DNA of 64,000 nt from Podarcis melisellensis (taxonomy: Eukaryota). The notes below the pieces were generated by a model. It made no database searches. It was not told the DNA's origin and was given only the letters and a program-made list of their open reading frames with translations. Positions 32,064 to 52,466 of the stretch are shown one piece after another (position 1 is the stretch's first letter; every line of letters begins with the position of its first letter). Where the stretch lies: assembly GCA_964234715.1 (NCBI GenBank), contig OZ174287.1; one strand, 5' to 3'. Both the position numbers and the translations under genes were made by a program.

Positions 32064-32188
32064 CTCGGCGTGAGGATTTCTTTGTACTGCAGTTTCTCTA
32101 CGCGGGTCGTCGCAGCCACAGACATAGGGATGACAATGTTGTTAATATCGAAAGAGCTTTCACCTCTCCTTCTCCGCGGCTGCTGCTG
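32064..32188 (-). CDS. KANSL1: KANSL1 exon 11 equivalent (start of PEHE / MOF-binding region)
   Basis: gttttgcag|CAG ... AG|gtatgc; 125 nt. Encodes [41 protein letters not shown](S). Confidence 0.96.
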
Positions 32189-35100
32189 CTGCAAAACACA
32201 AAAAGAAAAATGCTCAGGGAAGGAGGAGGAGGAGGAGGAAGCACTTCCAAGAGCAGGGAGCTGCACGAAGCAAGTAAGGCGATGCCCCCTTTTCGGTGTT
32301 AACTCTGCCTAGTGATGGCTGCCCAAAGAGATGGACCAAAAACACTCCAGGGTGGTTTGTTTTGTGCCACCAACCTTCAAACCAAGCCCCAGAAGCCATT
32401 TCCCTGTCAAGCTCATCCTATGGAGGTAGTTTGCGCATCTTCTCATTTCCTTATTTAGTATACCTTCATCCAGGGAATTTGGGCTATGGCCTTTAGATAC
32501 CCACACACTCAAGTCTTCTCCACAATGGACAATTATGTTGCCACTTGTGCGTTTCTCTCTCCCCAACTCAAGTTCAGGCACACATGCTTGTGAATCTGTT
32601 TTACCCAGCTGCAAGGATCCTAGGATCAAGTGGTTTAAATATTCGGGGGGGGGGGATGAGAGGTCATTGAGAGTCAGCAACCACTGGAAAGCTCAGAGCT
32701 CCTGATTCATGCCTTTTCTCAACCTAGTGTATGTCACCCTGTGAGACAACAGCACAGCTGCCATCGCCGCCAGCCCAAGAAATTCACAGCCACAAAATGA
32801 CCCACGAGGAAGGGCGTTTGGTCGGAATACATTGGAATTCCTTCCATGTGCAGAAAGCATTAACAGCCCTGCAGTGATTTCTGAAAGCTGACCGACTAAG
32901 GCAGCAGAGTGGCGCCTTACTACACTTGGAAGAGCGAGCAGGTAGCAGAGGGAAGGTGGGTGGAGGAGGGAGTAGATGCTTTGCACTACCTCTCAAGCAA
33001 AGACAATCCCATGGGAAGGATTACCTGGGCCTACTGTTGTTAAGGGTTAACACAGAGAGAATTACACCCTTTCCAATCTCTAGAATTCTTTTTGCCTGTC
33101 TCATAGCAGTGTACACGGGACATTATCAAAGTTCTGGGGGTATTTGAGAATAAATTCTGACTGCAGAAGGCATGGGGAATCTTTGGCTCTCCAACTCCCA
33201 AGGCCAAGACTATCAGTCATGTTAGCTGCCTGAAGCGAGAGACCATGAACATCTGAACTGGTTCCCCATCCATGACTGAGAGAGAGAGGGATAATTGATT
33301 TGGGGGAGGGGAGCCTCTTTGGCCTGCCCTCTGAACTTTCTGATTGGGTACCTGCCAGGCACAGGGCCACGCCCATTTCAGTCTTTCTGAACGACTAAAG
33401 CGCAGAGATGCAACCAAGCCTGAACACCGTGCGCTTCTAAAAATGCCTACCCTCCTCCAAGCACAAGTCGCCCTCTCCTTGAATCCCAACATTTGTGAAT
33501 GTTCTCCGACACGTCTTCCTGAATATCCATAGCAACAAAGGGCTTTTTAGGTATTCAGCACATCTCACCCTCGCCAGCTTTATGCATTATCTTAGCAGCA
33601 CATGCCTTGCACACCTGGGGGTGCCGCTTCTTCCCCGAGACGCCACTGCGAGCTTCAAAAAACATTTTTCGTGCACAAATGTGTGCTTAAAAATAAATAA
33701 AAAAAAACAAGGAAAAAATCTCTCTTTTTTGCAGCAAAGCCATATAGGGAGGCCTTCCTGGCAGCTTCCCCATAGCTCCCACTCTTCCCTGGCTTCATTC
33801 CTAAACAGCTTCCCAAAGTACTGGCATGGCTTGCTGTGTGTGCCACCTTTGCACTTCACCTGTTTGTCAGGGGGGTTGATCAGGATTCCAAGACCCCACC
33901 ACCACCACCGCTGCCCCACGTGCAGAATTTCAAGACCTGTTCTATTGCCGCTCGGTTATTTTATCCTCTTCACTTAAGACCTGAGAATCTACAGTTTTTC
34001 CTCCTTCCCTATCCCTAAAGACACGGTGCAGATCGCAGTCTGTTCGGATCTTATCTCAGAATCGCAACAATCCAAGGAGTGGTTATCTTGCCCGTCTAGA
34101 AAAAGGGTCGTGGCTATACCAGGAAACCAGAATCCAAATCTTTGTAGACTTAAAAAAAAAACACACACGTTTGTACCCAAGCCCTTGGGATGGGACAGAT
34201 TATAGACAAGCAAAACCAAACAAAAACAAATCTTGGCAGAAGCTGCCGCAATTTACCATCGTCTCAATGCTCTCCTTCCCACCCTCAGTGTGAAAAAAGG
34301 TGGATGAAACCTGAATACAAACATCTACTGTTGTTAAAACTACCCTTTAATCACAAGATGATTGAGGAGAGGTGATTAGTTGGGAGGGGTGCTGCTGCAT
34401 AATCTAACTGGCCTCATTATAGCCCTGGTAATGTAGGAGAATAGGATTGTTACACACAGAGAAATCCTGACACTGATTGGCTTAAGCCAAAGTCACTAGA
34501 TGTACATCAGTGGGCCCCTCTGTTATTTAGGCACCTGAAAGGTCCAATGAAGTATGAAGTAGTAAGAGCCAATCAGGGAGGAGGTACAAACTTCTCAATG
34601 GGTTCAGTAGCCTCCCTCTTGTATCTCTTTTTAATCCCCTCTCCTCATTTTTTTTTAAGGGGTGGTATAAAATCCCAAATAGCATGATCATGTGGCAACA
34701 TGTGAAATAGAAGACTGTGTGAATGAGTTAGAGTGAACAAATTTATTTAATACCTCTGGCTTATTTAGATTTTTACATCTTGGCCTTCTTTGAGGGCCTT
34801 GTTTTTAGTATTGAATTTATCTTTTTAACAGTTCAACAGATACTGAGGTTTCCTTGCATGAAGTTCTTCTGCTCTTAGTCCAACAGGATCAACTTTCCAT
34901 TCTCCTGTGCAGCTGCTTCAAGGCACAAGCACCTCCCTCGTGGATAGAGTAGCAACGGCACATTCAAAAACCCTTTGAAAAGGGGGCACCCTCTCCTGAT
35001 TCGTGAGCCAAGCCTGCCTTTGCTCTCTTCAGCCCAGGCCTCACCAGTCTTAGAACCCCACCCCCTTTGCTAAAGTGCCTTCCATTGTCTGCTGCAGACT

Positions 35101-35634: not shown

Positions 35635-35818
35635 CAGGCATAGGCAAACTCGGCCCTCCAGATGTTTGGGGACCACAACTCCCATCATCCCTGACCACTG
35701 TAACGGGCCAATGGCTGTAATAAAGATCAATCCAATCCCTGACCACTGGTCCTGTTAGCTGGGGGTGATGGGAGTTGTAGTCCCAAAACACCTGGAGAGC
35801 TGAGTTTGCCTATGCCTG
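35635..35818. mobile_element. Palindromic hAT-type MITE
   Basis: Perfect 17-bp TIR caggcataggcaaactc; perfect 8-bp TSD tcttacac (35627-35634, 35819-35826). Confidence 0.9.
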
Positions 35819-35931
35819 TCTTACACTCTGCAAAGCGCATTGTTTAGTGAAGGGGCAAGTATCACAATGGTGACCACAAGGCTTTGCTTTAATGCACTAT
35901 GTTGGGGGACGGACTCCTGGGAGGTACTTAC

Positions 35932-36086
35932 AGATGCACTGGAGGCTCCCAGTGAGCTCGTGCTGGCAGAAGGGATGGAGTTTTCCGAGGAGGTGGACAG
36001 CTGCCGCACAATGGGGCTGTGGGCCGCGGAGGCCATGTTGCTGGAGAGGTAGCTCGGGCCTCCGATATCTGCATGGTGCTTCAATA
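35932..36086 (-). CDS. KANSL1: KANSL1 exon 10 equivalent
   Basis: tcccacacag|TA ... TCT|gtaagt; 155 nt. Encodes (V)LKHHADIGGPSYLSSNMASAAHSPIVRQLSTSSENSIPSASTSSLGASSAS. Confidence 0.93.
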
Positions 36087-36267
36087 CTGTGTGGGAAGGA
36101 AGCACAAAGAGAGGAGGAGAAGAGGAGGAGGTGAATCAAACAGTGCCTATTATCATCACCATCATTGCAAAGCTTTGCAGCAACCTGTAATCAAGCAATC
36201 CGTACCAAAAGGAACCAGAGAGCACACTAGAGAGAAAAGGAGAAGAACCTCATTGGGCAGGACTTAC

Positions 36268-36300
36268 TTCCCCAAAGGAGGAAGTTTTAATGACTTCCTC
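36268..36300 (-). other. Candidate 33-nt poison microexon in KANSL1 intron 9
   Basis: T11-aaag| acceptor and GAA|gtaagt donor; in-frame TAA; overlapping perfect 12-bp hairpin. Confidence 0.4.
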
Positions 36301-36470
36301 CTTTAAAAAAAAAAAGTGCACAAGAAGACAGACTGCAGCATCTGACACTAGGTGCCCCCTTTAATTCCCCAGAAGCAGCAAGCACCCTTCTCCGAAGCTG
36401 GAGGGGAGGACGAGAACAGGAATGCGAAACCCAAGCTCTCCCTGGAAAGACCTGGCTGTGGCCAGCCTAC

Positions 36471-36632
36471 CTTCGCTTCTCTCGGAGGAGCTGTCCCGCA
36501 ATCGCTTTTTCTCATGAACTGGAGTCAGGATAAGCGAGCGCTCTGGCGCTCTCTCGGCCTTGGGGGCAGCCCTTAGATCGCCTAAGGGCTGCCTGTGTGC
36601 CTTGTCTGGCTCGGTTTTGTGATGCGAGCAAG
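36471..36632 (-). CDS. KANSL1: KANSL1 exon 9 equivalent (symmetric, skippable in frame)
   Basis: ttccactcctcag|CT ... G|gtaggc; 162 nt, phase 1-1. Encodes CSHHKTEPDKAHRQPLGDLRAAPKAERAPERSLILTPVHEKKRLRDSSSERSE. Confidence 0.9.
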
Positions 36633-38918
36633 CTGAGGAGTGGAACAGAAAGAGAGCCATGAAAACGCCCTGCTTTCACCTCTCTCTCCTGGCCCGCAGG
36701 GCGCAGCCGACACACACACACAAAAAGAGGCACGGGCGGGTGCCCCGCTGCCCAGCTCCAGACAAGACCCCAGGAGCTCACACCAAGCATTGCAGCCGGA
36801 AGAGGACAGGAGGCGCTCTTTGCAGAAATTCCCCCCAAGCCAACAGCTGAGTGACGACCCAAACAGGTCTACTCTTTCCCCGTGATGCAGCCTAGTTCAT
36901 CTTGCGGGCACAGTGCAAACGCAGCTGCACTGCTCATAGCTGCCTGTCTCGACCAGTTCAAGGGAAGGAAAAGAGGCAGGGCGCTTTTCAGCCAGTGTGT
37001 TCGGTGTGGCTGGAGGAGCAGGAGGGTGAGTGGGCAGAGGGGAAGGTGAGCATCCACTGAAAGAAAAGGAGAACTGCAAGCCTAGCTACATAGTGCAGAC
37101 CAATGTCCTTAGACACACCCAGGCCTTACAATGACTTTGAAAGGCCCAGCAGCTTCCGTTTTTGAGAGCTCCTTTGTGGCCCACATTTTTGGAACAGTCT
37201 ACCAACAGATGCGGGAGAACTTGAAGCCCTCCCATTTGTCGGGGGACTCCAGCACCTGCCACCCCCAGCCAGCATGGCTTATGGGCCAGGATGATGGGAG
37301 TCAGGAGTCCAGCATCATTCGGACTCCATCCCCAAGTCTACCAGATGTATTCTTTAGTGGGTCTGAAAAGGCAGTTGCAGTTGGCATTGCGTGACCATAG
37401 CAAAACATTCTGGCAAATCAAGAACAGGGCTGTGCATCCTCCTTGATTTTAAGCAATAACCTACCTTTTCAACTGAATCGCCTATGCACAACGCTCCCGG
37501 TGCTCAGGCGGCATCCTCCAAACAAAAAGGGTGGAAGGGATATGCACACACTCTGTCCCAGTACATTTAGGGGCATGCAGCCGTGACTTAATCATCATTG
37601 TGGCGTATGAAAGATCAAGGGTCTGTGTGAGCATGTGCAAAGCAACTTTCCCATTGACCAACCATGACCAGCACACCCAGACTCCAGCACACATGTGGGG
37701 TTAGGGCGAAGGCTGTTCCAGGTCAGGCAGCTCAAGACCAAGCACACCCTCAAAGACCTGCTCTGCTCCTATCCTCTGTGGGGAGGGGGGAAAGCTCATG
37801 GTAGAACATAGGCTCTGTCTGCTGAAGGTATCCAATGCTTCCTATTGCCCTTTTAAAGGAGCAGAACGAAGGCCTCTGCTTGAAAGCTGTGGCAAGTTAG
37901 AATATGCAAAGGATCAGATCAGGAATGAGGAACCGGCAGCATTCCAAGTCCATCTGGACTACAACTTCCATCATCCCTGACTGCTAGCTAATGGGAGCTG
38001 GGAATCCAACACCTGGAGGGCCACAAATTCCCCACTCTTACTGCAAGTGGAATAACCATCTGGCTCAGAATGAAGAGAGGCCCTTGCATCTTTTGAGATG
38101 TGCCATTTCTTTCCGATCACCTTCCACTGTGCCGTGTGGCTGTTCAAGAACTGTTGCATTTTAAATCTCTTTAGCGCTTCATAAACTTGACTGTGGTTAC
38201 CTTCTCAGTCACCCTGTCATCTTCCTAGCAACCCACTGAGGTTAAACTCCCTGTTCCTTACTGAGGGCCAGGGGCTTCCACAAGGCCAGGCAAGGGAGCC
38301 TATAGCAGGCAACGGGACTGGAAACCAAACGGCGAAAGTTGAAAGCTTCTCTGTCCCACAGACTGCAACTCTATGCTTTGTTGTCCCATGGCCTTAGTGC
38401 TGACTGCACACCTGAAAGAGTCTTTTAAAGTTGGTATTTAATATTTAAAAATTGTATTCTGAAGTCTCTTCTCTACAGTTGTACTGCATTGCAAAATGCT
38501 TTGTCAACTTTTTAAAAACCCCACATACTAAGGCTACACAGCCAGCCTCTAGTAAAGCTTATGTGAAACTGGACACATTGCTAGAGGCTGATTACTGAGA
38601 AAGAGAGGTTTTTTTCGGGGGTGGGGGAGGCCTGCCTTGGAATTATGTCCTCTAATCTGGAAGCCCAGCCTAAATTCAGAGATGTGGGGAGCCTGCTTGC
38701 TGATTGTTTAGGGAAGGGGAAAGTCGTTCACACATGCTCAAAGACACTCCCTTGTTTTCTATTTCACACGTTCCAGGGCTATCCATTCAAACCAGTTCCA
38801 AGGCAGAGCCCTGGGTTCACACGAAGCCCTGCATGCAGCTCACTCTGCTGTGGGACACAAGCAGGACCCATTTGGGTAGTTCTTGCCAACACACATCAAT
38901 CAACAAGAGGACACTTAC

Positions 38919-39104
38919 TGGCTGCAGCTAAGAAGGTGTTAACCAGCTTGTGGCGGTCCTTGCGCACGGAGTCAGGTAAACTGGTGGGAGGCATGGAGGG
39001 CCGATGCTTCAGCGTGAGCCTTTTGGGAGGCTTGATCTTCTCGCAGGGCTTGTTCTGCAGCTCGGATTTCAACATGCTCTGGAAATGCAAGCTCATTGGT
39101 ACAT
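38919..39104 (-). CDS. KANSL1: KANSL1 exon 8 equivalent
   Basis: ctcccgcag|AT ... A|gtaagt; 186 nt. Encodes (D)[61 protein letters not shown]. Confidence 0.95.
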
Positions 39105-40590
39105 CTGCGGGAGAAAGCAAGAGGGGAAGGCATTGCTACACGCTTGCATGTAATAATGTTGAATGCATGTTGAACGTCGAAGAGATCACAAATCACAGTC
39201 ATAGGTTAGGGAGGGACCCTGAGCATCATCTAGTTTGACCCCCTGCAATGCAGGCATCTCAACTCGTGGTCCCCCATCCAATCTGAAACCATACTGGACC
39301 CTGCTTATCTTTGCAAAGGTGCTAGTGATTTTTTATTGCAGAAGCATCATCACGTACATTTGGTGGCTCACAGGAGACTGTAAAAAGAACTAGTGGTGCA
39401 CATGGCTTTCAAAAAATGGAACAGGTAACTTCATGCCATCTCAATGCTACCACCACTCCCTATAGAGATGACATTTCTGCTCTGGCCAGAGGCAGCTTGA
39501 AATTCCTTCAAATAAGAGAACACCAGACTGCTTGAAAGAAAACCAAGAACAAGTTAATGGAGAAGAGCAGGGGTAAACAGGATTGTGGGTGTCTCACTGG
39601 CTGTGTCAGGAAGGGGCGCATGCTGCCTCAATCTAAAGATGGCCCCAATTTAAAGCTTCTGTGTTCTGTGAATGCCAAAAATGATCCCTTCCAAGTTCTG
39701 CACCAAGCAATCAAGATAAAGTGTGCTTGTAGAGTTCATGTGCAAAACCTATGCTGCTTCCAGCATACAGTGAGCCATGGGGAGTGCACATATGGAAGAT
39801 GGGTATGGGAAATAGGCCACTGGGGAATAAGGCACTGTCTGTAGCAGCCAGCACCCTCCCTCCCTTTATAGACAACCAGTATTGCCCCTGCACTTCCCAA
39901 AAGGCAGAAGTAAGCAAATAAATATATATATATATTTTTCAACAATCTGCACACCACACTTAATCACAGTCATCTCTAAGAGGCGTAATGAAACTAAAAC
40001 AGTAACTTCAGAATTCAATTTAAAAGGCCTGCTTGAAAAATAAAAAGGGCTGTTTCTGACGCAACCAGATGCAGAACTTCAGCTCACTCGAAAATCAAAA
40101 CATTGAAAGTAAAGTGGAAAGGTGACATTTCAGGACACAAGTTGGCGTTCAAGAACAAGAAGGGGAGTTTGCAGTGCCTGCTGAACTACCAACTTCTACC
40201 TCTTAAGATGCTCACAAAGGGCTTGGTCCATATTAGACACTGAAAGTCCCCCTTTTATCTTCTGTATTATCTGCAGAAGGTATCTGACTGACGTGACCTG
40301 CAGCAGCCAGGTTTATAACTGTGGCTTCACTCCAATGCTATGCCAACCATATTGGCTACCTTTCATTTTTTCTGGGCCTAATTCAAGGTACCAGCTCATA
40401 ATCTATACAGCCTGGCATCAGCCTTCACAAACTCAGTGCCCTTCAAATGTTTTGGCTCTTCAAGTGGGCTGTCGGATATGGGATGCTGCACTGCTTTCAT
40501 TTATGATTAAGTGTTTGTATATTTCATGTGATTTTATTGTTACTTGTTTTTTGTTGCTGTGCTTATAAGTTCTGGGCAAGAAACAAATGG

Positions 40591-51984: not shown

Positions 51985-52466
51985 CTGTATTTTTCGCCCT
52001 ATAGGACGCACTTTTCCCCCTCCAGAAATGAAGGGGAAATGTGTGTGTGTCCTATGGGGCGAATGCAGGCTTTCGCTGAAGCCTAGAGAGCAAGGGGGGG
52101 TCGGTGCGCACCAACCCCTCTCGCTCTCCAGGCTTCAGGAAGCTATCCGCTAGTCGTGGGAGACGCAGCTCTCCCACAGCTAGTGGAGAGCTTGCCTGCA
52201 CCCAGAAGCTTGGGGCGCGCTGAGCTCAGCACGCCCCAAGCTTCGCGCAGCGCTCCGCTAGCCGTGGGAGAGCCACGCGAAGTCACATGGCTCTCCCACG
52301 GCTAGTGGATAGCAGCCTGTTCTGGGGGCTGGGGTCGGGGGTAGCTGGGGCTTCCCCCGCCCCAGTCCCGCACCTGGGAGGGGGAATAATTTTTTTTCTT
52401 TATTTCCCCCCAAAAGAACTAGGTGCGTCCTATGGACCAGTGTGTCCTATGGGGCGAAAAATATGG
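51985..52466. mobile_element. Non-autonomous Tc1/pogo-like DNA transposon, CpG-rich
   Basis: TA|ctgtatttttcgccctataggacgcac ... gtgtgtcctatggggcgaaaaatatgg|TA; internal palindrome aagcttggggcgcgctgagctcagcacgccccaagctt. Confidence 0.82.

Follow-up and report, generated by a model that had tools for sequence, protein, structure and literature searches.

Intron 9 of KANSL1 carries, 170 nt from its start, an inverted repeat whose predicted fold is a stable stem-loop covering a cryptic 3' splice site. The hairpin looks real and is probably conserved, and it may be an example of the known principle by which RNA structure silences splice sites. It was analyzed within a window of 64,000 nt of Podarcis melisellensis DNA (contig OZ174287.1). 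We tentatively propose, giving the idea a little less than an even chance, that the stem-loop keeps a likely old acceptor silent, so that the short intron 9 leaves whole. The stem would then be closed over the AG at all body temperatures, as folding predicts, and silencing would protect the removal of a short intron lying beside the regulated exon 9. Peptides from other species suggest that the same site would be a full acceptor in birds, that gecko-like and snake-like sequences would form the stem from different base pairs, and that the lizard acceptor would have decayed to an AAG without a branch motif; the adjoining GTAAGT and the UAA in the loop would be lineage-specific passengers tolerated by the stem. 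That RNA structure can silence exon-like sequence within introns has been described (PMC3800588).

KANSL1 lies on the minus strand, and the window holds its 3' two thirds. The protein encoded by exon 8 was 100% identical to KANSL1 of Podarcis raffonei and P. lilfordi and 97% identical to that of Zootoca. Coding exons were mapped with the full-length P. muralis protein, which placed the first coding exon upstream, in L009, and five more coding exons downstream of exon 10. One non-coding first exon was assumed, and the exon numbering therefore agrees with the human MANE list, in which exon 9 has 189 nt and intron 9 has 340 nt (supplement row of PMC12096787). In the lizard, intron 9 spans 384 nt (36470-36087), exon 8 has 186 nt and exon 9 has 162 nt, each ending in phase 1, and the PEHE domain corresponds to residues 882-1030 of full-length KANSL1. 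Protein matches, exon mapping and the MANE comparison all agree with the gene and intron (KANSL1, intron 9) named in a first-pass annotation of this DNA. That annotation had also described KANSL1 as dosage sensitive, in line with a human pLI above 0.9 and a loss-of-function disorder in the table of PMC12096787. The features discussed below are collected in Table 1.

Table 1. Features of the KANSL1 exon 8 to exon 10 region, in positions of the window
Feature	Position	Strand	Basis and remarks
KANSL1 exon 10	35932..36086	-	reads, exon mapping
Second cryptic acceptor (TAG behind a pyrimidine tract); frame-shifting if used	36227..36247	-	sequence
Consensus-type donor GTAAGT	36262..36267	-	sequence
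Extended stem of 18-19 bp with G-U pairs	36267..36311	-	predicted; covers the AG, the donor to +1 and some of the U tract
Proposed 33-nt microexon, in-frame UAA in the loop	36268..36300	-	sequence; absent from reads
Perfect 12-bp stem with 7-nt loop; arms 36293-36304 and 36274-36285	36274..36304	-	sequence, folding; single copy
U11 tract and AAG cryptic acceptor, 170 nt into intron 9	36301..36315	-	sequence
Conserved 5' part of intron 9, first ~130 nt	36340..36470	-	squamates throughout, birds in part
First in-frame stop on exon 9 read-through (TAA)	36361..36363	-	sequence, P0127, two snake-like ORFs
KANSL1 exon 9, in-frame cassette of 162 nt, included or skipped	36471..36632	-	reads and annotated proteins
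Second perfect 12-bp stem, inside exon 9	36565..36593	-	sequence, folding
Hairpin over the pyrimidine tract of the exon 9 acceptor	36642..36695	-	predicted; flank conserved in bird- and crocodile-like ORFs
KANSL1 exon 8	38919..39104	-	protein match, reads, exon mapping

On the minus strand the hairpin site reads U11 (36315-36305), AG (36302-36301), 33 nt (36300-36268) and GTAAGT (36267-36262), with a 7-nt loop at 36286-36292. The U11, the AAAG, the 33 nt, the GTAAGT, the perfect 12-bp stem and its loop were each found where the first-pass annotation had placed them. To these we add G-U pairs, missing from that annotation, which lengthen the stem to 18-19 bp and reach part of the U tract and the +1 G of the donor. 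Its view that the stem buries the AG was borne out by folding between 10 and 60 °C, in which the AG had a predicted unpaired probability of 0.00-0.02. The core pairs had predicted probabilities of 1.0 at 10 °C, 0.999 at 45 °C and 0.998 at 60 °C, and warming loosened the G-U extension alone, opening the U tract and the donor partly at most. The AG is thus predicted to be sequestered by a stable stem (folding z -3.3). Since the stem is predicted to be closed from 10 to 60 °C, it resembles a lock and not a thermometer, which favors the silenced-acceptor reading; an RNA thermometer suited to an ectotherm was accordingly rejected. The loop UAA is, as had been claimed, the fifth codon past exon 8 or exon 9 (both phase 1), and use of the shared donor by exon 9 would add 203 nt, including the TAA at 36363-36361. 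The annotation's own caveat also holds, in that no yUnAy occurs within 60 nt of the AG. Any use of the cryptic site would lead to a premature stop upstream of the PEHE domain. Intron 9 holds further cryptic acceptors at 36227-36247 and 36185 (minus strand), both frame-shifting, one of them with a better pyrimidine tract and TAG than the 36301 site; joints at these acceptors were not listed in any of four RNA runs (see below).

Other species were compared through peptides of genomic ORFs that run from exon 9 into intron 9 (49 ORFs in total: two matches among 7 candidates, 16 among 1461, plus cluster members), and all cross-species evidence is therefore back-inferred at the peptide level. Judged by exon 9, four of these ORFs were snake-like, one gecko-like, one crocodile-like and the other checked representatives bird-like. 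By codon-aware alignment, the first ~130 nt of intron 9 gave block z values of 12.1 and 13.5 for the gecko-like ORF and 4.3 and 4.7 for snake-like ones, and the first block of the intron gave 2.5-6.8 in four birds. The last 70 nt before exon 9 were conserved in bird- and crocodile-like ORFs (z 6.1-9.7); the intron 8 start, used as a control in two bird ORFs, was not (z -1.0 to 2.0). Conserved intron flanks are the pattern expected at a regulated cassette exon.

Two of the five squamate-like ORFs, P0156 (snake-like) and P0158 (gecko-like), reach the hairpin site, and in both of them the longest Watson-Crick-compatible stem of the whole intron tail sits there. P0158 is compatible with 23 bp around a 7-nt loop, a length also reached by 18 of 6000 random peptides derived from the intron and by 6 of 1000 local shuffles. 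P0156 is compatible with 14 bp, matched by 307 of 6000 and 27 of 1000, respectively, which is borderline alone (~3-5%); both stems had been spotted by eye before the statistics were run. With the loops in register, none of the 12 lizard pairs was impossible in either ORF, and in P0158 the residues require a difference on both sides at two of the 12, which always pair. P0153, the sister of P0156, has a stop in place of Gln at the foot of the stem; the C/T change between them would keep the pairing with G and would fit a YAG acceptor. At the hairpin, the P0156 and P0158 peptides aligned poorly with the lizard DNA (block z 1.1-2.6), so positional homology rests on the flanks.

In the bird ORFs, two frames read together force a CTAAC, a pyrimidine tract and a CAG ending 158 nt into the intron (three ORFs set against P0170, with one conflict each). 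The lizard AG ends 170 nt into intron 9, behind a U run without yUnAy, and the bird CAG at ~158 nt. Four bird ORFs in the P0161 frame had no Watson-Crick stem at the acceptor among their best stems. A 12-bp bird stem read by eye from P0154 was dropped, being contradicted by the P0160 frame, and no top stem was found there; a 19-bp stem allowed at the acceptor in P0170 was not counted, being serine-rich and disallowed by other-frame ORFs. If splicing used the bird acceptor and the exon ran on to exon 10, four of the five ORFs that allow the count would be shifted in frame, as in the lizard. Given the bird acceptor and the squamate-compatible stems, the acceptor and, in squamates, the stem look old, and the hairpin looks both real and old.

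The strong bird acceptor is unmasked, and this stands against the silenced-acceptor reading, because an acceptor without a stem fits better with a used site or a decoy than with a nuisance site. Our preferred reading leaves this acceptor unexplained, which is the main reason to keep a regulatory use in view. One such use, which we judge unlikely, would be a squamate-wide, structure-gated unproductive switch: a helicase or RNA-binding protein would open the stem over the inherited acceptor and produce an NMD-bound message, coupling NSL-complex dosage to exon 9 splicing. The acceptor would in that case have been inherited from the bird-lizard ancestor and, once opened, would pair with the adjacent donor in lacertids or run on to exon 10.

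Splicing around intron 9 was followed in four raw RNA runs of a related organism (6 differences from the window in 36090-36129), none described as NMD-blocked. Reads were placed on 35850-39150 at 90% likeness, with 6-12% of each run sampled, 46-58 reads placed per run and splice joints listed from 3 reads upwards. Across the four runs, exon 8-9 joints were covered by 1, 1, 7 and 11 reads, exon 9-10 joints by 2, 1, 3 and 4, and exon 8-10 joints by 4, 10, 0 and 2. The two single-cell runs showed predominant skipping of exon 9 (14 skipping reads versus 2 and 3 reads at the inclusion junctions), and the two bulk runs predominant inclusion (2 skipping reads versus 18 and 7). We also surveyed 152 KANSL1 proteins (the 120 best of 261 matches and 32 cluster members) from squamates, birds, crocodiles, a turtle, marsupials and a rodent. 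Exons 9 and 10 are joined directly in 77 of them and exon 9 is skipped in 69; four of the rest read into intron 8, one into intron 9 and one had no anchor. Forms with and without exon 9 are thus annotated from lizards to mammals, and exon 9 is a regulated in-frame cassette; no description of it was found in the KANSL1 literature passages available. Two further predicted structures were noted at this exon. A purine run in 36642-36695 is predicted to pair with the pyrimidine tract of the exon 9 acceptor, and this hairpin may be considered a candidate control element for exon 9 skipping. Inside exon 9 itself lies a stem stronger than the intronic one, with 12 perfect base pairs around a loop of 5 nt (-23.1 kcal/mol, window z -6.2).

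The one protein reading into intron 9, P0127 (CAI5790370.1, P. lilfordi, 828 aa), ends at the 36363-36361 stop and has no PEHE domain. It could derive from retention, exon extension or intronic polyadenylation, its sequence being compatible with each. P0127 bears on a rather unlikely alternative in which splicing factors are engaged by the cryptic acceptor and the downstream U1-type site but no splicing follows, and the stem tunes intron 9 retention or exon 9 extension; the resulting transcripts would stop at 36363-36361 and then be degraded or held back. This would account for P0127, which comes from an annotation whose isoforms were built with PASA on Illumina short reads and Iso-Seq (PMC10214862), and for the sharing of its stop, which also ends two snake-like ORFs. 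It would likewise suit the shortness of the intron in both lizard and human, and the 10 unspliced reads (4, 4, 2 and 0 per run) found beside 26 spliced ones at the intron 9/exon 10 boundary, both unspliced reads of run X23 being in mRNA orientation. However, depth arithmetic gave only ~1 unspliced read over the exon 9 donor, and the middle of intron 9 was nearly empty in three of the four runs. Moreover, eight of the ten unspliced boundary reads came from single-cell libraries that also cover the intron 10 start and may be priming artefacts; the unspliced intron reads of these libraries carry adaptor-like loose ends, with an A11 run on the plus strand, and are ambiguous as to retention. Read-through was found in just one of the 152 proteins (the 120 best of 261 and 32 cluster members), and described decoys lie mostly in introns over 1 kb (PMC6097662). 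Several bird-like ORFs (P0161, P0164, P0167, P0171 and P0172) also cross intron 9 (306-336 nt) open and in frame from exon 9 to exon 10, so that retention in them would lengthen the protein instead of truncating it. As a separate observation, the start of intron 10 (35850-35931) was covered at 35911 by 9 and 7 reads of the two single-cell runs and by no read of the bulk runs. Loose ends resembling adaptor sequence occur at 35902, and the coverage could reflect artefact or retention.

It is distinctly unlikely, in our view, that the repeat arose neutrally, by local inverted duplication or template switching, with splice-like motifs arising by chance and the stems of other species being artefacts of codon freedom. 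The background rates lend this some weight. Although none of 3000 shuffles of the intron gave such a stem, real lizard DNA contained 16 distinct perfect stems of at least 12 bp in 464 kb (our own count over 25 listed rows), that is ~1 per 29 kb and ~30 times the shuffle rate. In the same 464 kb, both strands together held 126 pseudo-microexon configurations of pyrimidine tract, AG and GTRAG, 13 of them with GTAAGT, and the AG was predicted to be buried in 37 of the 122 that were scored; 3.4% of 475 background windows folded at z below -3. The sequence motif on its own is unusual, not extraordinary. Moreover, none of the RNA reads made use of the site, and no Rfam family reached its gathering threshold, the best of 7 weak matches in 35800-36900 scoring 24.1 bits versus 87 (MIR1509). 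Neutrality, however, sits poorly with the gecko-like 23-bp stem at the matching place, seldom equaled in either random set. Nor does it sit well with the snake-like stem found there, the acceptor that the bird residues force or the conservation of the intron flank. The Rfam scores, far below thresholds, led us to reject a miRNA precursor or other Rfam RNA. A transposon or repeat origin was also rejected, since the 141-nt region and the stem pattern each had a single match in the genome, at its own place (the DNA search for the 141-nt region skips very common words).

The first-pass annotation had read the site as a hairpin-gated 33-nt poison microexon, included when a helicase or RNA-binding protein opens the stem and then leading to NMD. 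We regard this as quite improbable. All its sequence parts are present and its stop is in frame, well ahead of later exon junctions, with five coding exons past exon 10. The junctions proposed for it (36471-36300 and 36268-36086) were nevertheless not seen in the four runs of the relative, which were obtained without NMD block: microexon use was found in 0 of 26 exon 10 junction reads (95% upper bound 11%, at low depth) or, counting exon 9-10 joints alone, in 0 of 10 (upper bound 26%), and no extra letters between joined exons were listed. Positions 36183-36293 had zero bases in three runs and 218 in the fourth, which has none in 36294-36404, a depth pattern that does not fit a 33-nt exon. An 11-residue insert was found in none of the 152 KANSL1 proteins (the 120 best of 261 matches and 32 cluster members), and an in-frame 11-residue microexon in other species was thus rejected. 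Poison exons are often invisible without NMD block (PMC11632617), and structure-controlled poison exons are known in the chromatin genes BRD2 and BRD3 (PMC10789245). On the other hand, human KANSL1 is entered as 'No' in the TANGO column for non-productive splicing in the table of PMC12096787, and it is absent from the one supplement of the survey of conserved cryptic poison exons in PMC11632617. The frame shift in four of the five countable bird ORFs agrees with an unproductive outcome, and P0158 can encode the weaker donors GTATG or GTAGG past the stem; a GTRAG there is unencodable in P0156 and in P0158, and by the codon table the gecko-like loop residues cannot encode UAA. Together with the weak AAG acceptor lacking a branch motif and a stem predicted to be insensitive to temperature, this speaks against the cassette. 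As to the compensatory changes that the annotation had looked to, a stem compatible at the peptide level, with different pairs, was found in both squamate ORFs that reach the site; the loop UAA is not kept. Of that account we retain the gene, the buried AG and the premature stop, and we count the squamate-compatible stem and the bird acceptor in its favor; we find the 33-nt cassette unsupported, and with its donor and loop stop it looks lacertid-specific.

The least probable alternative, and a most improbable one, is intronic polyadenylation from the AUUAAA that fills the loop (36291-36286, predicted fully unpaired), checked by the adjacent U1-type site and giving a truncated KANSL1; another AUUAAA, which the snake-like peptides allow, overlaps the stop (36365-36360), and P0127 could derive from such a transcript, but each strand here has one AUUAAA per 1933 nt, the loop residues of the gecko-like ORF cannot code for the signal, no pile-up of molecule ends was listed in the four RNA runs, and the literature searched on this intron, in the parts available, turned up nothing.

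Among known systems, the stem-loop of the ATM pseudoexon (PMC3800588, passages) is similar to the silenced acceptor proposed here in that an exon-like intronic sequence is ignored by the spliceosome, is folded and has a U1-type site nearby, and in that activation would break the reading frame. It differs in that the KANSL1 stem covers the AG directly, appears to be kept across squamates and lies in the conserved flank of a regulated cassette exon. BRD2 exon 3b and BRD3 exon 5b (PMC10789245) likewise combine a chromatin regulator with structure near a stop-carrying cryptic exon. Their structures are paired conserved complementary intronic regions and their exons are demonstrably included, whereas the KANSL1 stem is local and encloses the candidate exon, whose inclusion was not seen in the four RNA runs. 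The decoy exon in SF3B1 intron 4 (PMC6097662) shares with KANSL1 a conserved cryptic acceptor, rare or undetected junctions and an annotated intron-reading isoform; decoy exons of that kind lie mostly in retained introns over 1 kb and are U2AF-bound, in contrast to an intron of 384 nt whose retention is putative and whose acceptor is predicted to be buried. The hairpin at the 5' splice site of MAPT exon 10 (PMC11802352, passages) is also a short local hairpin masking a splice site, but it tunes a used donor, while that of KANSL1 covers an apparently unused acceptor and is predicted to be closed at all temperatures tried in folding. The plant DEAD motif (PMC12218528) is a conserved structure within an intron, close to alternative splice sites that lead to NMD when used; the plant structured RNAs show covariation in DNA, and two were experimentally validated, while the KANSL1 evidence is at the peptide level and no opening mechanism is apparent.

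The element is not described in the KANSL1 passages of PMC12096787, PMC4815063, PMC12925963, PMC10617732 and PMC13521219 or in those of PMC11077083 (Kansl1l), nor in passages of the open-access literature searched for KANSL1 poison exons, NMD, microexons, retention, temperature-dependent splicing and polyadenylation (splicing databases being outside the scope). KANSL1 is dosage sensitive in people, and the table of PMC12096787 shows no blockable non-productive event by which its level could be raised. If a conserved acceptor and stem-loop do lie beside exon 9, they would point to an unstudied control point in a short intron and would make a compact system in which to test how splice sites come to be silenced or gated by RNA structure during evolution; if the stem merely locks a decayed site, it would be a modest example of a known principle.

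Two observations were made elsewhere in the gene. The exon 11 acceptor (32180-32190, minus strand) is a run of CAG triplets at which isoforms vary in length by at least one Gln, which suggests the use of tandem acceptors. In addition, the KANSL1 intron at 52080-52400 folds strongly (z -5 to -6.6), with perfect stems of 13 and 18 bp; look-alike stems lie ~250 kb away (L023, 5946-6184), and both probably belong to a palindromic repeat element.
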